Shown here one piece after another: positions 2,212 to 12,154 of a DNA stretch of 64,000 bases (its first letter is position 1; each line of letters starts with the position of its first letter). The stretch is from the NCBI RefSeq assembly GCF_013122565.1, contig NZ_CP053258.1. The stretch is one strand, 5' to 3'. Position numbers and translations under genes: made by a program. The DNA comes from Escherichia coli (GTDB lineage Bacteria > Pseudomonadota > Gammaproteobacteria > Enterobacterales > Enterobacteriaceae). A model generated the notes under the pieces. The model saw nothing but the letters and a program-made list of their open reading frames with translations. It did not search any database and was not told the origin of the DNA.

Positions 2212-2540
2212 GAAAAGCCGAAGGGCGTCAACCGAAAAATGACCACTGATGGTGAGGAAATATCAGGGAAGTTGAAATTTTTTCATCTGAAGAAAAAAAC
2301 AGGGATACCAATGTTCAGTATGAGGTGAATATTGGGAAAATGCTGACGTTATTAATTTTATATTTATTTAAATGATGATTCATTCTGATTTATTTACTTA
2401 AAAAATGAATTATATTTTCAAATAAAACAAAAAGATACTTTAAGCCTCTCCGGCCTCCTCGCTTTTAATTTTGAACCACTTCAAACAAATAATAAATTCC
2501 TAAGAATTAAGTTGCAGACAAATTATACATCCCTCACGAT

Positions 2541-2571
2541 AAGTAGAACGTTCTAGTAGAACGTTCTACTT
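2541..2571 (+). promoter_or_regulatory. tandem LacI-family-type palindromic operator upstream of PTS gene
   Basis: AAGTAGAACGTTCTAGTAGAACGTTCTACTT: two copies of palindrome TAGAACGTTCTA with central CG, ~50 nt upstream of the PTS EIICB start. Confidence 0.5.
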
Positions 2572-2623
2572 ATATAAATAATCGTTCTTGCGCAGTCATC
2601 TGCGCTATTCGGGGGAAATCAGC

Positions 2624-4123
2624 ATGGGTCTGATATCGAGTGTCGTAAAATCACTTTCTAAACTGTCGATGATTGGTCGCGCGCTGATGCTGCCAATTTC
2701 GCTTCTGCCTGCCGCCGGGTTGTTGCTGGCGTTCGGCGATAAATTCCACATGCCGTTGATGATGAATGCCGGCGGTATCATTTTTGATAACTTGCCGATG
2801 CTTTTTGCTATCGGTTCTGCCGTGGGACTGGCTTCAGAATCGGGTATTGCGGCGCTATCCGCAGCTGTATCCGTCTTTGTCACTAATATCACCATCGGTA
2901 CTGTCCTTGGCATCACACCAGAGATGGCCGGGCAAGGCGGTAAATATGCGATGGTGGTGGGGATCCCAACGCTGCAAATGGGCGTCTTCGGCGGCCTGAT
3001 ATGCGGGGTTCTGGCGGCGTGGTGTTACAACCGTTTTCATACCATGCAATTACCAGAATTCCTTGGCTTTTTCTCCGGCAAACGCTTCGTGGCTATCGCG
3101 ACGGCTTTTCTTTCCTTCATCCTTGGCTTGTTACTGCCCTATGTCTGGCAACATATTCAGTCGGGAATCGATGCCCTATCAGTTATCGTCAATGGTGATA
3201 ACCAGGCGGCATCGACCTTTATTTTTGGTGTGACAGAACGTGCGCTCATTCCGCTTGGCCTGCACCACATCTGGTATCCATCGTTCTGGTACTCTTTTGG
3301 TGATTACACCACCCAGGCAGGCCAAATGATCCACGGTGACCAAACAATTTGGTTCAAAATGCTGGAAGAAGGTGTGAAATCGTTCAGTAGCGACAGCTAC
3401 CATAACGCGGGTAAGTTTTTACAGGGCGAGTTCCCGCTCATGCTGTTCGCGCTGCCTGCGGCGTGTCTGGCGATGTACCATGAAGCACACACCAAAAATA
3501 AGAAAATTGCCGCCGGTATTCTGTTCTCTGCCGCATTAACCTGTTTCCTGACAGGTATTACAGAACCCGTTGAATTTACCTTTATTTTCGTGGCACCGGT
3601 ACTGTACGTATTCAACGCGATAATGGCTGGCCTCTCCTATATGGCGATGTATCTGCTCCATGCCCATATTGCAAAATCCTTCTCGGCAGGGCTTATCGAT
3701 TATATTTCGTTTGGCATCCTGCCATCATTTAACGGCTACGAAACCAACTTCCTGAGTGCCATTATTGTTGGCGTACCGATGGCGATTATCTATTACTTCA
3801 CTTTCCGCTTTGTTATTCGCCGTTTTGATGTGAAAACACCGGGTCGAGCCGAAAGCACCGTATCCGCTAACGATAAAACCGATGATGAACTGGCTACGGA
3901 AATTATCAGTCTGCTGGGCGGCCAACAAAATATCTCTTCCGTCGCATCCTGCATAACACGCCTGCGTCTGGAAGTGGCAGATAAGGATGTAGTTGATAAA
4001 GATGGACTGAACAATGTCGGTGCTCGTGGTGTGGTTTTTGTCGGCGATAACGGCATTCAGGTGATTTTTGGCGCACGTGCACAATTTATCGCGCAAACCA
4101 TGTCGACGATGATTGGCAAATAG
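2624..4123 (+). CDS. PTS glucose/maltose-family EIICB component
   Basis: Polytopic membrane N-terminal domain plus C-terminal EIIB with CITRLR phospho-cysteine motif; start placed at ATG 2624 after GGGGGA RBS (track ORF begins at TTG 2588). Confidence 0.8.
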   Translation: MGLISSVVKSLSKLSMIGRALMLPISLLPAAGLLLAFGDKFHMPLMMNAGGIIFDNLPMLFAIGSAVGLASESGIAALSAAVSVFVTNITIGTVLGITPEMAGQGGKYAMVVGIPTLQMGVFGGLICGVLAAWCYNRFHTMQLPEFLGFFSGKRFVAIATAFLSFILGLLLPYVWQHIQSGIDALSVIVNGDNQAASTFIFGVTERALIPLGLHHIWYPSFWYSFGDYTTQAGQMIHGDQTIWFKMLEEGVKSFSSDSYHNAGKFLQGEFPLMLFALPAACLAMYHEAHTKNKKIAAGILFSAALTCFLTGITEPVEFTFIFVAPVLYVFNAIMAGLSYMAMYLLHAHIAKSFSAGLIDYISFGILPSFNGYETNFLSAIIVGVPMAIIYYFTFRFVIRRFDVKTPGRAESTVSANDKTDDELATEIISLLGGQQNISSVASCITRLRLEVADKDVVDKDGLNNVGARGVVFVGDNGIQVIFGARAQFIAQTMSTMIGK

Positions 4124-4190
4124 TCATAAGATTACGCTTTGTTGGAGGTTCTGGTCCCTGACTGGAACCTTCGTACTTATTGTTCAGGGA

Positions 4191-5213
4191 GTGAAGTTGA
4201 AGAAAGTCAGCATAATTGATGTTGCCAAAAGCGCAGGAGTCTCGGTCTCTACTGTGTCGCTGGTCCTGCGCCAGAAAGGCAAAATTTCCGAGGCAACCAT
4301 CGAGAAAGTTCATGCTGCCATTACTGAGCTTGGCTACGTGCATAATGTTGCCGCCGCCAATTTACGCTCCAACACTTCAAATCTTATCGGTCTGATTTTA
4401 CGTGATTTTAGCGATAGCTTTTCCATCAAAGTGATGGCAAGTATTGTTCAGGAACTGGAAGCACAAGGATATATGGTTTTCCTCGGGCAACCACAGAACG
4501 AGCATGAACATCTTGAACGCTGTTTGCTTTCCTTCAAGCAACAAGGTGTTGCCGGAGTGATTTATCTGGCTTCCGATGCGCAGCGTGAAACCTTACCCGC
4601 GCTGATTCGCCAGTGCCCTCTTCCTCTTGTCGTCGCCTCACAATCCCCCATCAAAGATGAATGCAATCTGGTATTGCGCGACAACCAGCAGGCGGCAAGC
4701 CTTGCCACGCGTTATTTAATTGAGCGTGGACATCGTTACATTGCCTACCTCGGCGGCAGAGAAAGCGATCTTATCCGCCAACAGCGACTGGTGGGTTTTC
4801 GCCAGACCCTGGCAAAATTCGGTATTGCCAGTCGTGACGAGTTCACGCCAGCCTGTGACGATGATACATACGCCGCCAGCATGGCCACGCGCCAGTTGCT
4901 GGAGAATAACAATGCCATCACCGCCCTACTCTGCCATTCGCCCGAGGCCATGATTGGCGGTATCAACGGCATACATCAGGTGGGGCGCACCGTCGGGAGA
5001 GACATCTTTCTGACCCAGCAGGTGGCGCTAATTGGTTTTGAAGATATGCTGCACATCAATCTGACCTCGCCCGTTTTCACCTATGTCTCTTCCGCCAGTG
5101 AAGAAACCGGACGCCAGGCTGCTAATCTAATAATCCGCAAGTTAAAAGACCCGGAGCTGCAAATTCAAAGAATTGCGCTTTCCGGGCAACTGGTAGTGCG
5201 GGAATCGGCGTAA
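4191..5213 (+). CDS. LacI-family transcriptional regulator
   Basis: N-terminal HTH KKVSIIDVAKSAGVSVSTVSLVL followed by periplasmic-binding-protein-like sugar-binding fold; start at GTG 4191 or TTG 4197 is uncertain. Confidence 0.8.
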   Translation: MKLKKVSIIDVAKSAGVSVSTVSLVLRQKGKISEATIEKVHAAITELGYVHNVAAANLRSNTSNLIGLILRDFSDSFSIKVMASIVQELEAQGYMVFLGQPQNEHEHLERCLLSFKQQGVAGVIYLASDAQRETLPALIRQCPLPLVVASQSPIKDECNLVLRDNQQAASLATRYLIERGHRYIAYLGGRESDLIRQQRLVGFRQTLAKFGIASRDEFTPACDDDTYAASMATRQLLENNNAITALLCHSPEAMIGGINGIHQVGRTVGRDIFLTQQVALIGFEDMLHINLTSPVFTYVSSASEETGRQAANLIIRKLKDPELQIQRIALSGQLVVRESA

Positions 5214-5336
5214 TTATTTCTGCCAGTCTCCGTCTTTAGCCGGCGGTCATCGCCACAACTGCACTGATGGATATGGTATTCTTTCGAGTATCTTTGCGGG
5301 CACTAACGCCAGGAGTATCGCCATGAGAATGGCGCG

Positions 5337-6818
5337 ATGAACACAGGGAATTTCGAGTCGATACAAATCATACTCGACGCGCAAGAGTGGCGTAGCCTGC
5401 CGCTGCATCTGCGTCTGTATCACGCTTTTCGCCAATTGGTGATTTCCGGCGCGTTGTCTGATGGCGCAAAGCTGCCGTCCGCTCGCGCACTGGCCCAGCA
5501 ACTTGGTCTTTCCAGAGATACCGTCGAAAATGCCTATTCCCAGCTTCAGCGCGACGGTTTTATGACCCGCAGGCAGGGAGCCGGGAGTTTCGCCAGCCGC
5601 CAGGGGATCCCGCAAATTCAGGGGCAGCACGCTCAGCCCCCCTCGCCCGGACAAGCACCGGCATTAACCGCCCGCTGGCAGCCGATTGCCGATCGCGCCG
5701 TCTCTTTCGATGCCCGCCAGATGCAGACCTTTACGCTTGGCCTGCCGGAAACGCGAAACTTCCCGCTAAACATTTGGCAGAACTTTTCCCGCCAGATCCA
5801 ACGTGAGCAGGCGCATACGCTGATGTTAAATAGCGATCCGCAGGGCGAGCCGGAGCTGCGCCAGCAAATTGCGCATTACCTTAATTTTGAACGCGGCGCG
5901 AAGGTAGATGCAGAGCAGATTGTGATTGTCAGCGGCGCACGGCAGGCGTTCTGGCTGTGCGGGCAACTGCTGGCAGAGGCCGGGCAATCAGTGGCGATGG
6001 AAAATCCAGGCTATCCCGGCGCGCGTCAGGCGTTTTCTGCCGCACAGCTTAATCTTCTTCCCGTTGAAGTGGATGACGCCGGGATCCGGGTGGATAAACT
6101 GCCGCCCGCACCGCTGGTTTACGTCACGCCGTCGCACCAGTTTCCTTCTGGTCATTTGCTCACGCTGGCGCGCCGTCACGCCCTGATTGCCTGGGCACAG
6201 GCGCACAATGCGTGGATTATTGAAGACGACTACGACAGCGAATTTCACTACACCAGCGCGCCCGTCGCCTGTCTGCAAGGGTTAGACTGCGAGCAACGCA
6301 CCCTGTATGTCGGCACTTTCAGCAAAACGCTCTATCCTGGTTTGCGCATTGGTTATCTGGTGGTGCCTGCCTCGCTGGCTGCGCACTTTGCCGCCGCACG
6401 TAATTTGCTTGATGGCGCAACGCCTGCGTTATCCCAACTGACGCTGGCGCGATTTATCGAGTCCGGTCATTTTGCCGCCCATATTCGCACCATGCGCAAT
6501 ATGTACGCGGTGCGACAGGCGAGCCTTGCAGAGGCTATTCATCAGCACTTAAGTGAATGGGTCACGCCAGTGGTGACATCCGGTGGATTACAAATGCCCT
6601 GCTGGCTGCATGAAGATGTTGATGAGCAACAGACGCTGAACGCGGCGCGCCGCGCCGGGTTAAATATCGCCGGGATGCGCCAGTTCTGGCTGACGCACCC
6701 CGCGCCCGCGGGCTGGCTGCTGGGATTCGCCGCCTTTACCCCCTACGAAATTGAGCAGGGAGTCAAGCGTCTGCGGGCTGCATTATGCGCTGAAAACGTG
6801 CGCCCAGCCGGGTCATAA
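5337..6818 (+). CDS. MocR/GntR-family regulator with PLP-dependent aminotransferase-like domain
   Basis: 493 aa; N-terminal GntR-type HTH (LPSARALAQQLGLSRDTVENAYSQL) plus large C-terminal aminotransferase-fold domain. Confidence 0.75.
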   Translation: MNTGNFESIQIILDAQEWRSLPLHLRLYHAFRQLVISGALSDGAKLPSARALAQQLGLSRDTVENAYSQLQRDGFMTRRQGAGSFASRQGIPQIQGQHAQPPSPGQAPALTARWQPIADRAVSFDARQMQTFTLGLPETRNFPLNIWQNFSRQIQREQAHTLMLNSDPQGEPELRQQIAHYLNFERGAKVDAEQIVIVSGARQAFWLCGQLLAEAGQSVAMENPGYPGARQAFSAAQLNLLPVEVDDAGIRVDKLPPAPLVYVTPSHQFPSGHLLTLARRHALIAWAQAHNAWIIEDDYDSEFHYTSAPVACLQGLDCEQRTLYVGTFSKTLYPGLRIGYLVVPASLAAHFAAARNLLDGATPALSQLTLARFIESGHFAAHIRTMRNMYAVRQASLAEAIHQHLSEWVTPVVTSGGLQMPCWLHEDVDEQQTLNAARRAGLNIAGMRQFWLTHPAPAGWLLGFAAFTPYEIEQGVKRLRAALCAENVRPAGS

Positions 6819-7869
6819 TCTCATACGGGATGGTGTCGCAGGCAGCCGCAACCTCTTCCAGCGTCTGGCCTGTGCCAATAAACTCCACCTTATCGCCCGC
6901 CGTCGGCGTGACGGCGCTGGCATCGACCATAAAGCTGTCCATACACACCCGCCCCAACACCGGTAACCGCACCCCGCGCCAGCATACGCCCGCCGGAGGA
7001 CGCATATTTCGCGGAACGCCATCCGCGTAACCCGCGGATATCGTGGCGATACGCAGCGGACGCGTGGCGGTAACCGTGCTGCCGTAGCCAACTGGCGTTC
7101 CGGCCGGAACATCCTGCACGCGCAGTATGGTCAGCGTCAGCGTAAAGACCGGTTTTAACGGCCTGGAAAACCACGGCTGGGTGACGCCAAACAGCGCAAT
7201 CCCCGGACGGCAGAGATCTTCCCGCCAGCCCGAGTGCAAAAACATCCCGCAGGAGTTCGCCAGCGAAAATCGGCTGCTGGGGAAAACCGTTTTTGCCTGC
7301 TGAAGTCGCGCGTGTTGCGCCATATTTAACGCATGATCCGGCCTGTCGGCGTTCGCCAGATGGCTGATGATATAATCCGGCGCAGGCCAGTTACGCTCAC
7401 GAAAAATCGCCGCCAGACGCATCAGTTGTTGCGACATCACGCCCAGCCGCGACATCCCGGAATCGAGCTGAATCATCACCGCACGCCGCTGCTGGCGCGT
7501 TTCCAGTAACGTAAGCCACGCCATCACCTGGTCTACGGAATTGAGCAATGGCGTGATCTGCTGCGCGTAACAAAATGCCATCGCCTCCGGCATAACCCCA
7601 TTAAGCACCACCACCCGCGCATCAGCGGGCAAGCATTTACGCAGCGCCACACCTTCAGAAAGCTGCGCGACAAAAAAGATCCGGCAGTTCGCCGCATACA
7701 GGGCGGGAGCAATCGCCTCCGCCCCCAGACCATAGGCATTCGCCTTCAACACCGCGCCACATTGCGCACGGGCAGCATGGCGGGCCAGGGTGCGATAATT
7801 TTCGACAATGGCGGCGAGATTGACGCACATAACGCCGCACGCCGCCTGAATTTCAGCAAGAGTTATCAT
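6763..7869 (-). CDS. alanine racemase-family (fold-type III PLP) enzyme
   Basis: 368 aa; [11 protein letters not shown]-lysine motif typical of Alr; ATG overlaps stop of upstream GlyA-like ORF (ATGA). Confidence 0.75.
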
Positions 7870-8981
7870 TGATAAGGCAACGGATAGCGGTTGGTTAGTT
7901 GTATTACTTTTTGCTCAATATCGGCGCAAATGTCTGCAATATCTGACGCGTTAATGGCCAGAATGATTTCACTTATCCAGTCAGCAATAAGCGCAAAGTC
8001 ATCCGCCTGCATCCCACGCGTGGTGCAGGCCGCGCTGCCAATACGAACGCCGGAGGTAATCGACGGCGGCTGCGGATCGCCCGGCAGGGTGTTTTTATTA
8101 ACCGTGATCCCCGCCAGTTCGAGAAAATACTCTACCTGTGCGCCGGTTAACCCCTGCGGGCGCAGGTCGATAATCCCCAGATGGCAATCGGTGCCGCCCG
8201 TTAACAGCGTCAGACCGCGCTGCGCCAGTTGCTGGCACATCGCCTGCGCATTGTCGATGACCTGCCCGGCATAACGTTTAAATTCCGGTTGTAATGCCTC
8301 GCCAAGCGCCACCGCTTTCGCCGCGATAACGTGCATCAACGGCCCGCCCTGCAAACCGGGAAAGATGGCGCTGTCGATTTTTTTCGCAAGCCGGGCGTCG
8401 TTGGTGAGGATCATGCCGCCGCGCGGCCCGCGCAACGTTTTATGCGTGGTGGTGGTGACCACATCAGCATACGCCAGCGGCGAAGGGAAACAGCCGCCCG
8501 CCACCAGCCCGGCAAAGTGCGCCATATCCACCAGCAAAATGGCGCCCACGGCATCGGCAATGCGGCGAAAACGGGCAAAATCATAGCGGCGTGGATAAGC
8601 CGATCCTCCGGCAATAATCAACCGTGGGCGCTCACGCAGCGCGATCATCTCGACTTCATCCATATCAATCAGGCCACTATGGGCATCGACGCCATAGTGA
8701 AAAGCGTTAAACCATTTGCCAGATTGATTGACCGGCGAACCGTGCGTGAGATGCCCGCCGCATTGCAGGCTCATGCCAAGAATTTTGTCGCCGGGTTTCA
8801 GCAACGCCAGATAGACCGCCTGATTCGCCTGGCTGCCGGAGTGAGGCTGCACATTGACGTAACGTGCGCCAAAGAGTTGCTGGGCGCGGGTTATCGCCAG
8901 CATCTCAACCTCATCAATAAACTTACAGCCGCCGTAGTAGCGATGCTGGTAATAACCTTCGGCGTATTTATTGGTTAACAC
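7866..8981 (-). CDS. serine hydroxymethyltransferase (GlyA) paralog; N-terminus interrupted by in-frame TAG (possible pseudogene, intact frame would start at ATG 9104)
   Basis: ORF aligns to SHMT from LTNKYAEGY onward ([21 protein letters not shown] motifs). Upstream in-frame codons read [43 protein letters not shown], still SHMT-like. Confidence 0.65.
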
Positions 8982-9337
8982 CGACCCCTGCGCCGCGAGA
9001 ACAGCGGGGCTTACGAAATTCTCCGAGGCAATCAGTTCCAGCGACTACTGCTGGCGCTGTTGCTCCTGGTTAATCAATGCAAAAAGTGGATCGTTATTTA
9101 TCATGCGCTTCCCCCGAAAATTCATCATGCGATGATTTTCGCAGGGAAAACGTCGCCCGCACCCTGCCACTTTTTAGAATGAGCGCAGACCACCTATGTC
9201 GTTTTACTTAAAAGAAGAGGGAAGAAGGCTCCAGGCATCTCCATATGCGATTCTGGTTGGTAATACATCATATTCCAGCTGCTCTTATCTGCCTACGTTA
9301 TTGCATAGGCAGAATAAGGCAGCCTCAATACGTACTT

Positions 9338-10891
9338 TTACTTGATATATTTCACGCGCATACCGTTGATCTGTTCATCCGTGATGGTGTTACCCGCTTT
9401 GAAGTAATCAACCACGGCGTGATAAACGTAATAACCGCCCGTTGTGTTACGCGCTTTCCCTTCGGTAAAGGCGGTAAAACCATCTCCACCATCAGCAAGG
9501 AAACTCTGGGTGGCAATAGAATAAACTGTCGCATCTTCAATGGGTTTGCCATTCAGAGTCAGTGTGATTACCCGCTGACCAACCGGCTTGCTGCTGTCGT
9601 ACTTCATTTCCAGGCCTTTCGATACCTGTAAAACGCCATTACTTAAACTTGCGCCGTGTTCCATCAAACTGCGTAATTGTTTCCCTGTGAGATCCATCGT
9701 CACCAGTTCGTTGGGGAACGGGAAGGTACTGATGACGCCGCCCATCGTAATCGCCCCTGCGGGGATCTCATTGCGAATACCGCCAGAGTTGGTTAAGGCT
9801 ATTTGGGTGTTTTTACCCGCCGCTACCAGTAAAGCGTCAGCCGCCAGGTTCCCGAGGGAAGCCGATTCACCATAGGCACGTTTTAATTCAACCGGCGATT
9901 GCGCCACCGTTTGTTGCACCACTTCATCAAGCTTTTTATTCCAGCCGTCGATCACCTGTTTTGTTTGCGGATCGGGCTTCCACTCGTCGGCGTAAATGGT
10001 TTTCAGCTCGAAGTTTTTCACCGTAAAATCATGCGGCTTCTCTTTGTAGTCGAGGACCAGTTTGCCCACATCAATCCCGCCGCTGTCAGTGGAGAGGATG
10101 AGCGTATTGCCGACTTTAATCGGTTCCGGCGTACCCACATGTGCATGTCCGGTGATCAAAATATCCAGCCCTTTCACCTGACTTGCCGTCTGAATATCTT
10201 TATCCAGTGCGCGACGCACATCGGTCCCTCCCATACTGGACTGGCGGGCCGGAACACCTTCATGGATCAGGGCGACGGTCAAATCAACCTTGCCTTTAAG
10301 TTCATCGATATAACGTTGTAGCCATTTAATTTCATCGCGCGCTTCAATACCCACGCGCGTGGCAGCAGATACCGTATCGTTGAAAGCAAATACTCCGTGC
10401 AAACCTATAACGCCTATTTTCACGCCGTCTTTTTCGATGATGGTATATGGCTTATCCCAGAATGATTTACTGCTGTTCTGATAAAAAACATTGCCCTGCA
10501 CAATAGGGAATTTTGCCTGACTCAACTGTAATAATGTGTTGTCCCAGCCGTGGTCAAATTCATGGTTGCCTATCGTGACGGCATCAAACGGCATAGTATT
10601 CATAATATCGATAATAGCCTTACCTTTGGTCAGGCTGCTGATATATGGCCCGGTAAAATAATCACCCGCATCAAAAAACCATGTCGCTTTATTTTTTGCT
10701 TTTTCTTGCTTAACCAGCGTAGTGATATTTGCCCAGCCGCCAATATCCCGTTTACCGTCAGCGATCCACGGCACTTTATAAGGCTCGACATGCGCATGGA
10801 GGTCGTTGGTATAAATGATGGTGACATCTTTGGCGCAAGCCCAGAACGGCAATGTTAATGCGATACCCGCAGCAAGTATTTTAATTTTCAT
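9338..10891 (-). CDS. secreted bifunctional metallophosphatase/5'-nucleotidase (UshA-like)
   Basis: 517 aa; signal peptide [20 protein letters not shown]; calcineurin-like metallophosphatase motifs (GNHEFD, GHAH) and C-terminal 5'-nucleotidase domain. Confidence 0.8.
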
Positions 10892-11023
10892 AAATAGTCC
10901 CTTTCAGTGATTTAAAGGATTGCTACATTACGTTCTGAAAGAGTTATTTATGTGAGAGTAATCACATCCGCAGGGGATAGTTGCCGGACAAAATCAACGA
11001 CCTTGTGAAATCGTTGGTGATAT

Positions 11024-12154
11024 ATGTCAACTCTGTTTACGATTAATGCCTGCAAGTCGTTTGGTTGCCGTAATTTAGGGCAACCAACATCGACAGATTA
11101 CAGCTGGCCAGACTATCGACTGGGTTATCCGGCACTGCACTGTCGGGCATGTGGAAGTTACCCGCCGTTGTTTGACGAACAGCAATTTCGTGACTGGTTG
11201 TCAGTTCACTTATCTACTTTTGCAACTGAGAAAGGTCATTTCTGCCCGGTATGTTATGGCACAAAGACGATTTGTTATGGCCACAATCCACAGGGGTCGC
11301 AACGCATTCAATGTCGTAACTGCAAAAAAGTCTGGACACCTAAACAATATCAGAAAGAAATAACGCCTCCTGAAATAATCGAAACGGTTGCTCTTCTGGT
11401 GCCATTTCAGGGAGCCAGCAATGGGCAGAAACTGTATGTTTTAATCAGTTTTGATGCTCTTCGCGGTAATATTCTTCATCTTTCTACTAATTACACGCAG
11501 CATCAGGCTGGAGAAAGTCTGCATTATCGATACAGAGGAAATGCAGAACCAGAGTTACACGAGAGTAATATTGTACAACGCGTTGATATGCGCGAAGCAC
11601 AATTTCTACGCCGCAGTCAGTTTGATGAAATTCAGTATGGCAGCGCAGCGCTCAAACGCAATGCTAAAGGTATTATTCTGCGTCCGGTTATCACTGCACA
11701 CGGGCATTTCAGAGTACTGAATATTTTATTCCCTACAGTAAAAACACATGTAATTTCACACGAGTGTTTTTTAAGAGGTGCCATTATTACGGCATGGGCT
11801 GATCTGTTTCGCCAACAGCAAGGTGAAATTTGGTTTATTGAAGAGGAAATAGCTGACTATACCGATAATATGCCCTGGAGTTTTCAGGGAACAACATATC
11901 ACGGCTGGTGGAAAAATCAGTGGCAACTTTGGGGTCAGGGCAAAAATCGTAAAATGGTATGTGCATTAACAGGCGGAAATAACAGCAAAGCTGAAATGCT
12001 CTCTTTCGCAACCAGCAGACATTTTATCGACTGGCTACATAAACAAGCAGTATTTACTCACAGCACCCCGCTTTCCGCAGGGCGCGTTACGCAAATACTG
12101 CTTTCTCTGGCTCAGGATTACAACAACTGCGCCAGCCGGTTGATATCCGACTGA
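11024..12154 (+). CDS. hypothetical protein with InsA/IS1595-type zinc-ribbon motifs (transposase-like, likely domesticated or relic)
   Basis: 376 aa; paired CxxC motifs (HCRACG, CPVCYG...QCRNCKKVW) resembling transposase zinc ribbons; 3' end overlaps metL 3' end by 37 nt, so no room for a terminal inverted repeat. Confidence 0.5.
   Translation: MSTLFTINACKSFGCRNLGQPTSTDYSWPDYRLGYPALHCRACGSYPPLFDEQQFRDWLSVHLSTFATEKGHFCPVCYGTKTICYGHNPQGSQRIQCRNCKKVWTPKQYQKEITPPEIIETVALLVPFQGASNGQKLYVLISFDALRGNILHLSTNYTQHQAGESLHYRYRGNAEPELHESNIVQRVDMREAQFLRRSQFDEIQYGSAALKRNAKGIILRPVITAHGHFRVLNILFPTVKTHVISHECFLRGAIITAWADLFRQQQGEIWFIEEEIADYTDNMPWSFQGTTYHGWWKNQWQLWGQGKNRKMVCALTGGNNSKAEMLSFATSRHFIDWLHKQAVFTHSTPLSAGRVTQILLSLAQDYNNCASRLISD

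Follow-up and report, generated by a model that had tools for sequence, protein, structure and literature searches.

The window, i.e., the whole stretch of 64,000 nucleotides of Escherichia coli DNA analyzed here, carries a mosaic of accessory modules between metF and metL (positions 2290 to 12117), among them a gene for a PTS EIICB protein of the glucose family followed on the same strand by a gene for a LacI-family regulator (Table 1). In Escherichia this two-gene cassette lies between metF and metL, whereas in 52 to 53 of the 79 loci analyzed it is flanked by folD and cysS. The cassette has a wide distribution in Enterobacterales and occurs sporadically in E. coli, where only 8 of 5,426 complete genomes carry it, in agreement with the initial annotation, which had assigned it to an island; the island junction in E. 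coli is near position 2290, upstream of the operator described below. Taken together, the modules of the metF-metL gap occur in none of the 5,426 complete E. coli genomes. The MocR/alr/SHMT module is found in other genomes than the PTS module, at approximately 92% identity, and parts of the gap, usually the ushA-like end, have matches in 1,844 genomes. Upstream of metF, on the minus strand, tandem AGACGTC-like octamers (TTTAGACGTCCAGATGTAAAGATG, 2175 to 2208) are identical in the compared E. coli strains and are presumably MetJ boxes of the metF promoter.

The EIICB protein comprises a IIC domain (residues 50 to 345) and a IIB domain (residues 399 to 483). Its best model is TIGR02002, the glucose-specific PTS IIBC equivalog, with a score of 562.8 bits that falls below the cutoff of 591.8, so that the gene was assigned to the glucose family only and not to glucose specificity. 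No conserved hydrolase or kinase partner was found beside the PTS-regulator pair among the 79 loci, so that direct entry of the phosphorylated product into central metabolism is presumed, which would suggest a glucose-like monosaccharide as the transported substrate. The regulator scores 324.6 bits against the NCBIfam MalI subfamily model NF007449, above the cutoff of 310, and many other LacI-family models also match. Its homologues carry the PF00356, PF00532, PF13377, and PF13407 domains (LacI helix-turn-helix and periplasmic-binding-like). The translation start used here is also that of the RefSeq annotation in strain UTME-7, and in all loci the gene begins with TTG or GTG, preceded by a conserved AGGGAG. 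The LacI-family gene had been described as lying immediately downstream of the operator; it indeed encodes a LacI-family regulator, of the MalI subfamily, but it follows the PTS gene rather than the operator, starting 73 nt past the PTS stop codon. A literature search found no paper on this cassette, and a regulator, an operator, and a probable promoter are now assigned to this so far uncharacterized pair.

Table 1. Features of the PTS-regulator cassette and of the surrounding metF-metL gap in the window
Feature	Position	Strand	Remarks
Upstream inverted repeat TTTGAACCACTTCAAA	2470-2485		TGA-N6-TCA, CRP/FNR-like; candidate activator site; centre 72 bp upstream of the O1 centre
Candidate -35 of P1, TTGCAG	2512-2517	+	predicted from conservation of TTGC
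Candidate -10 of P1, CACGAT	2535-2540	+	17 bp after the -35; predicted from conservation
35-bp perfect palindrome	2539-2573		17-nt arms 2539-2555 and 2557-2573, 100% complementary around the single base G2556 (repeat search); contains O1 and O2
Operator O1, AGTAGAACGTTCTAGT	2542-2557		LacI-type 16-mer; centre between 2549 and 2550
Operator O2, AGTAGAACGTTCTACT	2555-2570		perfect 16-bp palindrome; centre between 2562 and 2563
A/T block TATATAAATAAT	2571-2582	+	directly after O2; alternative -10-like element (P2); TACAAT in most genera, TATATA/TATAAA/AATAAT in the window
Leader hairpin GCGCAG TCAT CTGCGC	2590-2605	+	small, GC; folds in the window leader
PTS + malI-like regulator module	2624-5213	+	metF-metL gap
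PTS EIICB, glucose family	2624-4123	+	499 aa, no IIA domain; ATG at 2624; Shine-Dalgarno GGGGGA at 2611-2616
Intercistronic hairpin	4143-4173	+	14-bp stem, weak T tail; terminator-like match and fold
MalI-subfamily LacI-family regulator	4197-5213	+	338 aa; TTG start; Shine-Dalgarno AGGGAG
MocR/PdxR-like regulator	5337-6818	+	metF-metL gap
Alanine-racemase-like gene	6763-7869	-	metF-metL gap
SHMT-like gene	7866-8981	-	metF-metL gap
ushA-like 5'-nucleotidase	9338-10891	-	metF-metL gap
'Cytoplasmic protein'	11024-12154	+	metF-metL gap

Anatomy of the probable double operator

The string AAGTAGAACGTTCTAGTAGAACGTTCTACTT, in which the initial annotation recognized two copies of a palindrome, was located exactly at positions 2541 to 2571 when the window sequence was read. 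By pattern search, TAGAACGTTCTA was found twice (2544 to 2555 and 2557 to 2568), and the 14-mer GTAGAACGTTCTAC was found at 2543 to 2556 with one mismatch and at 2556 to 2569 with none. The repeat is thus real, and the feature is larger than first described, since a repeat search extended it to a perfect palindrome of 35 bp that contains a 13-nt exact direct repeat (2542 to 2554 and 2555 to 2567). By our own arithmetic, the chance expectation for a perfect inverted repeat of 17+17 nt is 64,000 x 4^-17, or about 4e-6 per 64-kb window.

The palindrome resolves into two 16-bp sites, O1 and O2, each with a central CG, whose centres are 13 bp apart. They had been called tandem, and there are indeed two copies, but the sites overlap by 3 bp. 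O2 consists of the half-sites AGTAGAAC and GTTCTACT and is perfect, whereas O1 pairs in seven of its eight positions (15 of 16 bases), its right half-site being compromised by G2556 (a C would make the site perfect). O1 and O2 share this base, which is the centre of the whole palindrome, and it can therefore make only one of the two sites perfect. Both sites have the features of LacI/GalR operators, i.e., a palindrome of about 14 to 20 bp with a central CG step, and a LacI-family regulator with an HTH_LacI domain and a periplasmic-binding-protein-like core is encoded nearby (ORF 4197-5213). The geometry first proposed is borne out in these 16-bp palindromes, which share the core TA.AACGTT.TA with the operators of K-12 MalI, as is the distance of about 50 nt from the EIICB start: the PTS ATG lies 51 to 53 nt downstream. 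No other operator copies with up to two mismatches were found in the 64 kb except chance-level matches inside genes, and no further regulon members beyond chance were found in the window. Judging from this anatomy and from the conservation described below, the 35-bp repeat is very probably the DNA site at which the neighboring MalI-like repressor shuts off the PTS cassette.

Conservation and use of the overlapping sites

A scan of one genome per species yielded 80 loci with a regulator identity of 73 to 97%, distributed over at least 23 named genera of Enterobacterales ranging from Escherichia, Kluyvera, and Enterobacter out to Pantoea, Erwinia, and Shimwellia; further regulator matches were found in Salmonella, Scandinavium, and Duffyella. 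In 79 of the 80 loci the PTS gene (86 to 99% amino acid identity) is directly upstream of the regulator gene, in the same order and on the same strand. Lack of conservation in orthologous loci had been named as an outcome that would speak against the operator; the opposite was found, as all 77 upstream regions long enough to read keep both sites in front of the orthologous target gene at a centre spacing of exactly 13 bp. In an ungapped alignment anchored on the operator site, the 29-bp operator block reaches 1.83 bits per position, compared to 0.47 in the promoter spacer and 0.39 in the distal leader and downstream. Values of about 0.4 bits in the flanks indicate that unconstrained positions have been largely randomized. 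The DNA-binding part of the regulator is similarly constrained: its helix-turn-helix, including the recognition helix, and its hinge are essentially invariant across loci, and the segments AGVSVSTVSLVLR.KGKIS and NxAAANLR are present in every ortholog, save for one Q-to-R change at the position marked by the dot.

A more distant relative with 68% identity (L089) has the same double-site layout, whereas in the nearest outgroups (L086 and L087, 43 to 45% identical), which have the classical divergent malI-malXY arrangement, two single sites are separated by about 70 to 190 bp. Given the double site in all clade loci and in L089 and the single sites in the outgroups, the overlapping pair is a defining, ancestral trait of the clade. 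A recent neutral 13-bp tandem duplication was ruled out by the presence of the double site in every genus examined. A cassette boundary or attachment site was likewise ruled out, as conserved promoter elements and an upstream box reach at least 80 to 90 bp further upstream within the cassette. Two loci deserve a separate mention. In E. coli 2018-05-2CC (L002, 4624-5949), a diverged cassette allele has a PTS gene with an in-frame internal deletion of 58 aa, which probably renders it inactive, and an operator block that is intact apart from a central base C instead of G. A typical enterobacterial PTS-malI cassette with a regulator 79% identical to that of the window was also found in a record titled Chryseobacterium sp. 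18061 (L042), which is probably a mislabelled or contaminated assembly.

Among the four half-sites, three are nearly always AGTAGAAC, namely, the left half of O1, the right half of O2, and one inner half. The G at position 7 is invariant in the left half of O1 and present in 75 of 76 sequences in the right half of O2. At position 4, G, T, and A are all accepted, with the greatest variation in the inner half that is weakened. Among the 76 distinct sequences, the central base common to both sites is C in 70, G in 4, and A in 2; C and G, the sole bases that give one of the inner half-sites its G7, thus account for 74 of 76. Where the central base is C, O1 is the perfect site. The window and its near-twin L004 differ within a 110-nt stretch only by G versus C at this base, a change that swaps which site is perfect. 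Each locus consequently combines a full site with one whose inner half is weakened. This pattern fits recognition by a protein rather than selection for RNA or DNA pairing, because the O2 of most genera, ACTAAAAC joined to GTTCTACT, breaks two of eight pairs.

The spacing itself is not new. A survey of LacI-family regulons found that the distances between sites peak markedly at 13 bp, with overlapping pairs upstream of 110 operons (Ravcheev et al. 2014, PMC4052901). According to that survey, the overlap is conserved in more than half of the GntR-regulated operons, and for GntR at E. coli gntKU it is functional, a result that the survey credits to Tsunedomi et al. 2003. Its authors also pointed out that the overlap falls within the zone of specific contacts, that binding as a tetramer or at the same time is hard to reconcile with structures, and that a special binding mode with partial unwinding may exist (PMC4052901). 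The present operator belongs to this class, having two sites for the same factor that are conserved at this distance among orthologous loci.

How the pair would be occupied can be read in two ways. It is a real possibility, albeit not the expected one, that O1 and O2 are mutually exclusive registers for a single dimer, an arrangement that would sum their affinities and lengthen the part of the promoter that is covered. The inner half-sites have 3 bp in common, the shared central base satisfies only one of them, and by the structural reasoning of Ravcheev et al. (PMC4052901) the overlap is within the zone of specific contacts; two dimers centred 13 bp apart should indeed compete for bp 6 to 8 of the inner half-sites, which also weighs against our preferred reading of O1 and O2 as two repressor sites. 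However, mere redundancy should tolerate drift, whereas the weaker site and its exact spacing are invariant in 77 of 77 loci; in addition, 13 bp is a distance preferred family-wide (110 operons) and is functional at gntKU as recounted in PMC4052901.

We tentatively propose, while thinking it somewhat doubtful, that the invariant overlap reflects a distinct obligatory mode. Two MalI-like dimers would bind simultaneously, on DNA faces separated by about 90 degrees, and the DNA would probably be kinked or unwound; alternatively, a dimer of dimers would recognize the outer half-sites completely and the inner ones in part. This proposal is supported by the constant spacing, by the presence in every locus of one full and one weakened site, and by a central base that is C or G. 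If it is true, no natural model for the 13-bp puzzle of the 2014 survey would be cleaner than this cassette. In any case, one 35-bp duplex and one 338-aa protein make a compact and symmetric test case for the use of overlapping sites at this distance.

Candidate promoter, leader, and expression of the regulator

Conservation outlines a weak candidate sigma-70 promoter, P1, that runs into the operator. A TTGC motif (1.80 bits per position) forms the first four bases of a TTGCNN hexamer at -38 to -33 from the O1 centre and is found at this fixed distance in 74 of 77 loci, the other three being shifted by 1 bp (Mixta) or reading TTGATC. The candidate -10 hexamer, at -15 to -10 from the O1 centre, varies (CACGAT, GACGAT, CAGGAT, CATTAT, and CACTAT, among others) around the pattern NANNAT, and the A at position 2 and the T at position 6, which are the critical positions of a -10 element, are each kept in 74 of 76 sequences. 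The 17-bp spacer between the two hexamers is fixed in length and not conserved in sequence. Transcription would likely start at about 2546 to 2549, inside O1; counted from this predicted start, O1 extends roughly from -5 to +11 and O2 from +9 to +24. P1 matches the consensus in three of six bases per hexamer, and a sigma-70 consensus scan of the plus strand upstream of the PTS gene called no promoter, so that P1 was assigned from conservation.

The same repressor and operator could instead serve a second promoter, P2, with a start at about 2583 to 2590, O2 in its spacer, and O1 over its -35 region, an arrangement that we regard as unlikely. At +22 to +27 from the O1 centre, most sequences read TACAAT, a 5/6 match, and 74 of 76 have the A at position 2; this conserved -10-like TACAAT/TATATA block directly after O2, along with the weak consensus match of P1, counts against our preferred placement of the start. 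P2 would also be analogous to K-12 malX, whose MalI site overlaps the -10; the malX operator reportedly spans -24 to -9. On the other hand, the T at position 6 of the block is kept in only 52 of 76 sequences, the mean conservation is 1.09 bits compared to 1.52 for the -10 of P1, and no -35 element is possible without violating the operator sequence. The P2 start would moreover lie within the 5' arm of the leader hairpin, a conserved structure, and the TTGC, 17-bp, NANNAT arrangement would be left unexplained. P1 is the favored promoter, and the leader hairpin, which begins where the P2 start would fall, argues for an upstream start. Under either P1 or P2, both operator sites are within the RNA polymerase footprint, and the regulator would hence have to act as a repressor.

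The leader hairpin is found at the same place in most of 72 distinct orthologous leaders with differing stems (AGCGC/GCGCU, GCAC/GUGC, AGCGU/ACGCU, and GGCGC/GUGCC), and the stem changes are apparently compensatory. The sequence TCGGGGGAAATCAGCATG after the hairpin is also unusually conserved. Further upstream, a [T/C]GA-N6-TCA box was detected in 62 of 77 loci. In 58 of these its distance to the O1 centre is 82 to 84 bp, and in the four Escherichia loci it is 72 bp, shorter by about one helical turn. The box has the appearance of an activator site that acts from one face of the helix on a weak promoter. In other genera it is placed 83 bp upstream and mostly reads ATCGATCAACTTCAAA, which contains GATC. 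Assignment of the box to CRP was considered and rejected, as a resemblance to CRP/FNR sites is limited to Escherichia, Kluyvera, and a few others, and we thus do not name the factor. Between the -35 element and the operator there is no canonical CRP site, the TCACG at 2534 to 2538 having no conserved partner half-site.

Expression of the regulator presumably depends on the same promoter. No second operator-like site was found in the PTS-regulator gap or elsewhere in the window, nor was an obvious separate promoter for the regulator gene found in the window. A GC-rich hairpin of differing sequence occupies the same place between the two genes in essentially all loci; together with the TTG or GTG start, it suggests attenuated, low-level expression of the repressor, for which read-through from the PTS gene is the simplest reading. 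Based on the co-orientation of the genes, the absence of a second operator, and the read-through hairpin, the unit would be negatively autoregulated. Against read-through, the intercistronic hairpin could terminate most transcripts, and in many other genera a GATAAT between the hairpin and the regulator gene could belong to a promoter of its own. The PTS-malI gaps of three loci (L005, L006, and L059) contain CAACGTTG just upstream of the regulator ribosome-binding site. This 8-bp palindrome with the AACGTT core of the operator is absent from the window and may be due to chance.

We consider it likely, on the whole, that the 35-bp palindrome is the operator of a self-contained cassette in which a PTS EIICB gene is followed by the gene for a MalI-like LacI-family repressor. 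The autoregulated repressor-operator-transporter unit first proposed is thus supported to the extent that sequence analysis allows. Two 16-bp repressor sites, built from AGTAGAAC half-sites around a central CG, would cover the start point of P1, and bound repressor would exclude RNA polymerase or block open-complex formation and promoter escape. An inducer, most plausibly a sugar or a sugar phosphate made by the transporter, would free the repressor, which itself would be made at a low level by read-through from the PTS gene past the hairpin and would in this way regulate its own synthesis negatively.

Two further explanations dispense with the linked repressor, and we find both of them very improbable. 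That the palindrome acts as a nucleic acid structure, i.e., as a leader-RNA hairpin or attenuator or as a DNA cruciform, is prompted by its perfect 35-bp symmetry and by the first 19 nt of the predicted leader, which fold as an 8-bp stem and can form a strong hairpin, but it is base identity and not pairing that is conserved: O2 lacks two of its eight pairs in most genera, positions 4 and 7 from each centre vary without the covariation that would maintain pairing, no Rfam family matches, and a symmetry that is perfect over 35 bp is confined to the Escherichia loci and some few further lineages. Similarly, a host regulator such as classical MalI, TreR, or another LacI-family protein could be invoked from the central AACGTT common to the K-12 MalI operators and from GAACGTTC, common to the K-12 treB operator region CGGGAACGTTCCCG, but the outer positions differ (4, 7, and 8 from MalI; 5 and 6 from treB), the site accompanies the cassette in both the metF-metL and the folD-cysS context, and its conservation parallels the invariant DNA-binding domain of the linked regulator.

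Comparison with known LacI-family systems

The closest known system is that of K-12 MalI, an autoregulated repressor for which RegPrecise lists no effector. Both regulators fall within the NF007449 subfamily and have the recognition-helix sequence VSVSTVSLVL in common, the target in both cases is a glucose-family PTS EIICB gene, and the K-12 operators GATAAAACGTTTTATC and GATAAAACGTTTTACC, as read from the K-12 genome, are 16-bp palindromes with the same TA.AACGTT.TA core. Listed by their distance from the centre, the half-site bases are A8 G7 T6 A5 G4 A3 A2 C1 in the window and G8 A7 T6 A5 A4 A3 A2 C1 in K-12 (AGTAGAAC versus GATAAAAC); they agree at positions 1 to 3, 5, and 6 and differ at positions 4, 7, and 8. 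In contrast, the regulators are only 37% identical and the PTS proteins only 33%, the cassette is without malY, and its regulator gene is co-directional with and downstream of the PTS gene, whereas K-12 malI is divergent. An orthologue of K-12 MalI would be recognized by divergent malI/malXY genes with malY, by the GATAAAACGTTTTATC operator, and by close identity, none of which applies to the regulator of the window.

Classical malI belongs to the core genome of K-12, and strains with the cassette presumably hold both regulators. Assuming that classical malI is core as it is in K-12, the cassette regulator and MalI are paralogues, and the differences at positions 4, 7, and 8 of the half-site would be as expected of paralogues that avoid cross-talk. 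The regulator of the cassette, labelled simply 'MalI' in databases, would accordingly be a paralogue with its own operator specificity and not the MalI of the maltose regulon. As to the number of sites, repression by MalI is exerted through one 16-bp site in the malI promoter and another in the malXY promoter (PMC5543585). K-12, like the nearest outgroups, uses two separate single sites about 70 to 190 bp apart, whereas the cassette has an overlapping pair. K-12 MalI has already been made into a reporter-operator tool (PMC5543585), and orthogonal MalI-type repressor/operator pairs are of practical use.

RegPrecise contains another possible counterpart, 'PtsR' (Ent638_0983) of Enterobacter sp. 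638, a LacI-family regulator of Enterobacteriales listed under 'Sugar utilization' for a single genome, with two sites and without an effector (supplement of PMC4052901). It fits the cassette by name, by number of sites, and by rough map position (about 1.1 to 1.2 Mb in two complete genomes, L046 and L021), and it may be the regulator of this cassette. PtsR is nevertheless a prediction from a single genome, whereas conservation across genera comes from the present analysis.

Double sites of other arrangements are also known. RafR of the raf operon and other obligatory double operators likewise have only double sites, which implies two dimers per promoter, but their spacing of 21 to 22 bp corresponds to two helical turns and places non-overlapping sites on the same face of the DNA, whereas the sites of the window are 1.25 turns apart and overlap. 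The nearest parallel in layout is GntR at gntKU. When re-read, the sequence TGTTACCGATAACAGTTACCCGTAACA upstream of K-12 gntK comprises two palindromes 13 bp apart that form one larger, imperfect palindrome. The regulator subfamily and the half-site differ, and the symmetry in the window, perfect over 35 bp, is far cleaner. The layout of 13-bp overlapping LacI-family sites is thus already known, and what is new here is a MalI-paralogue repressor with an unusually clean and strictly conserved example of it.
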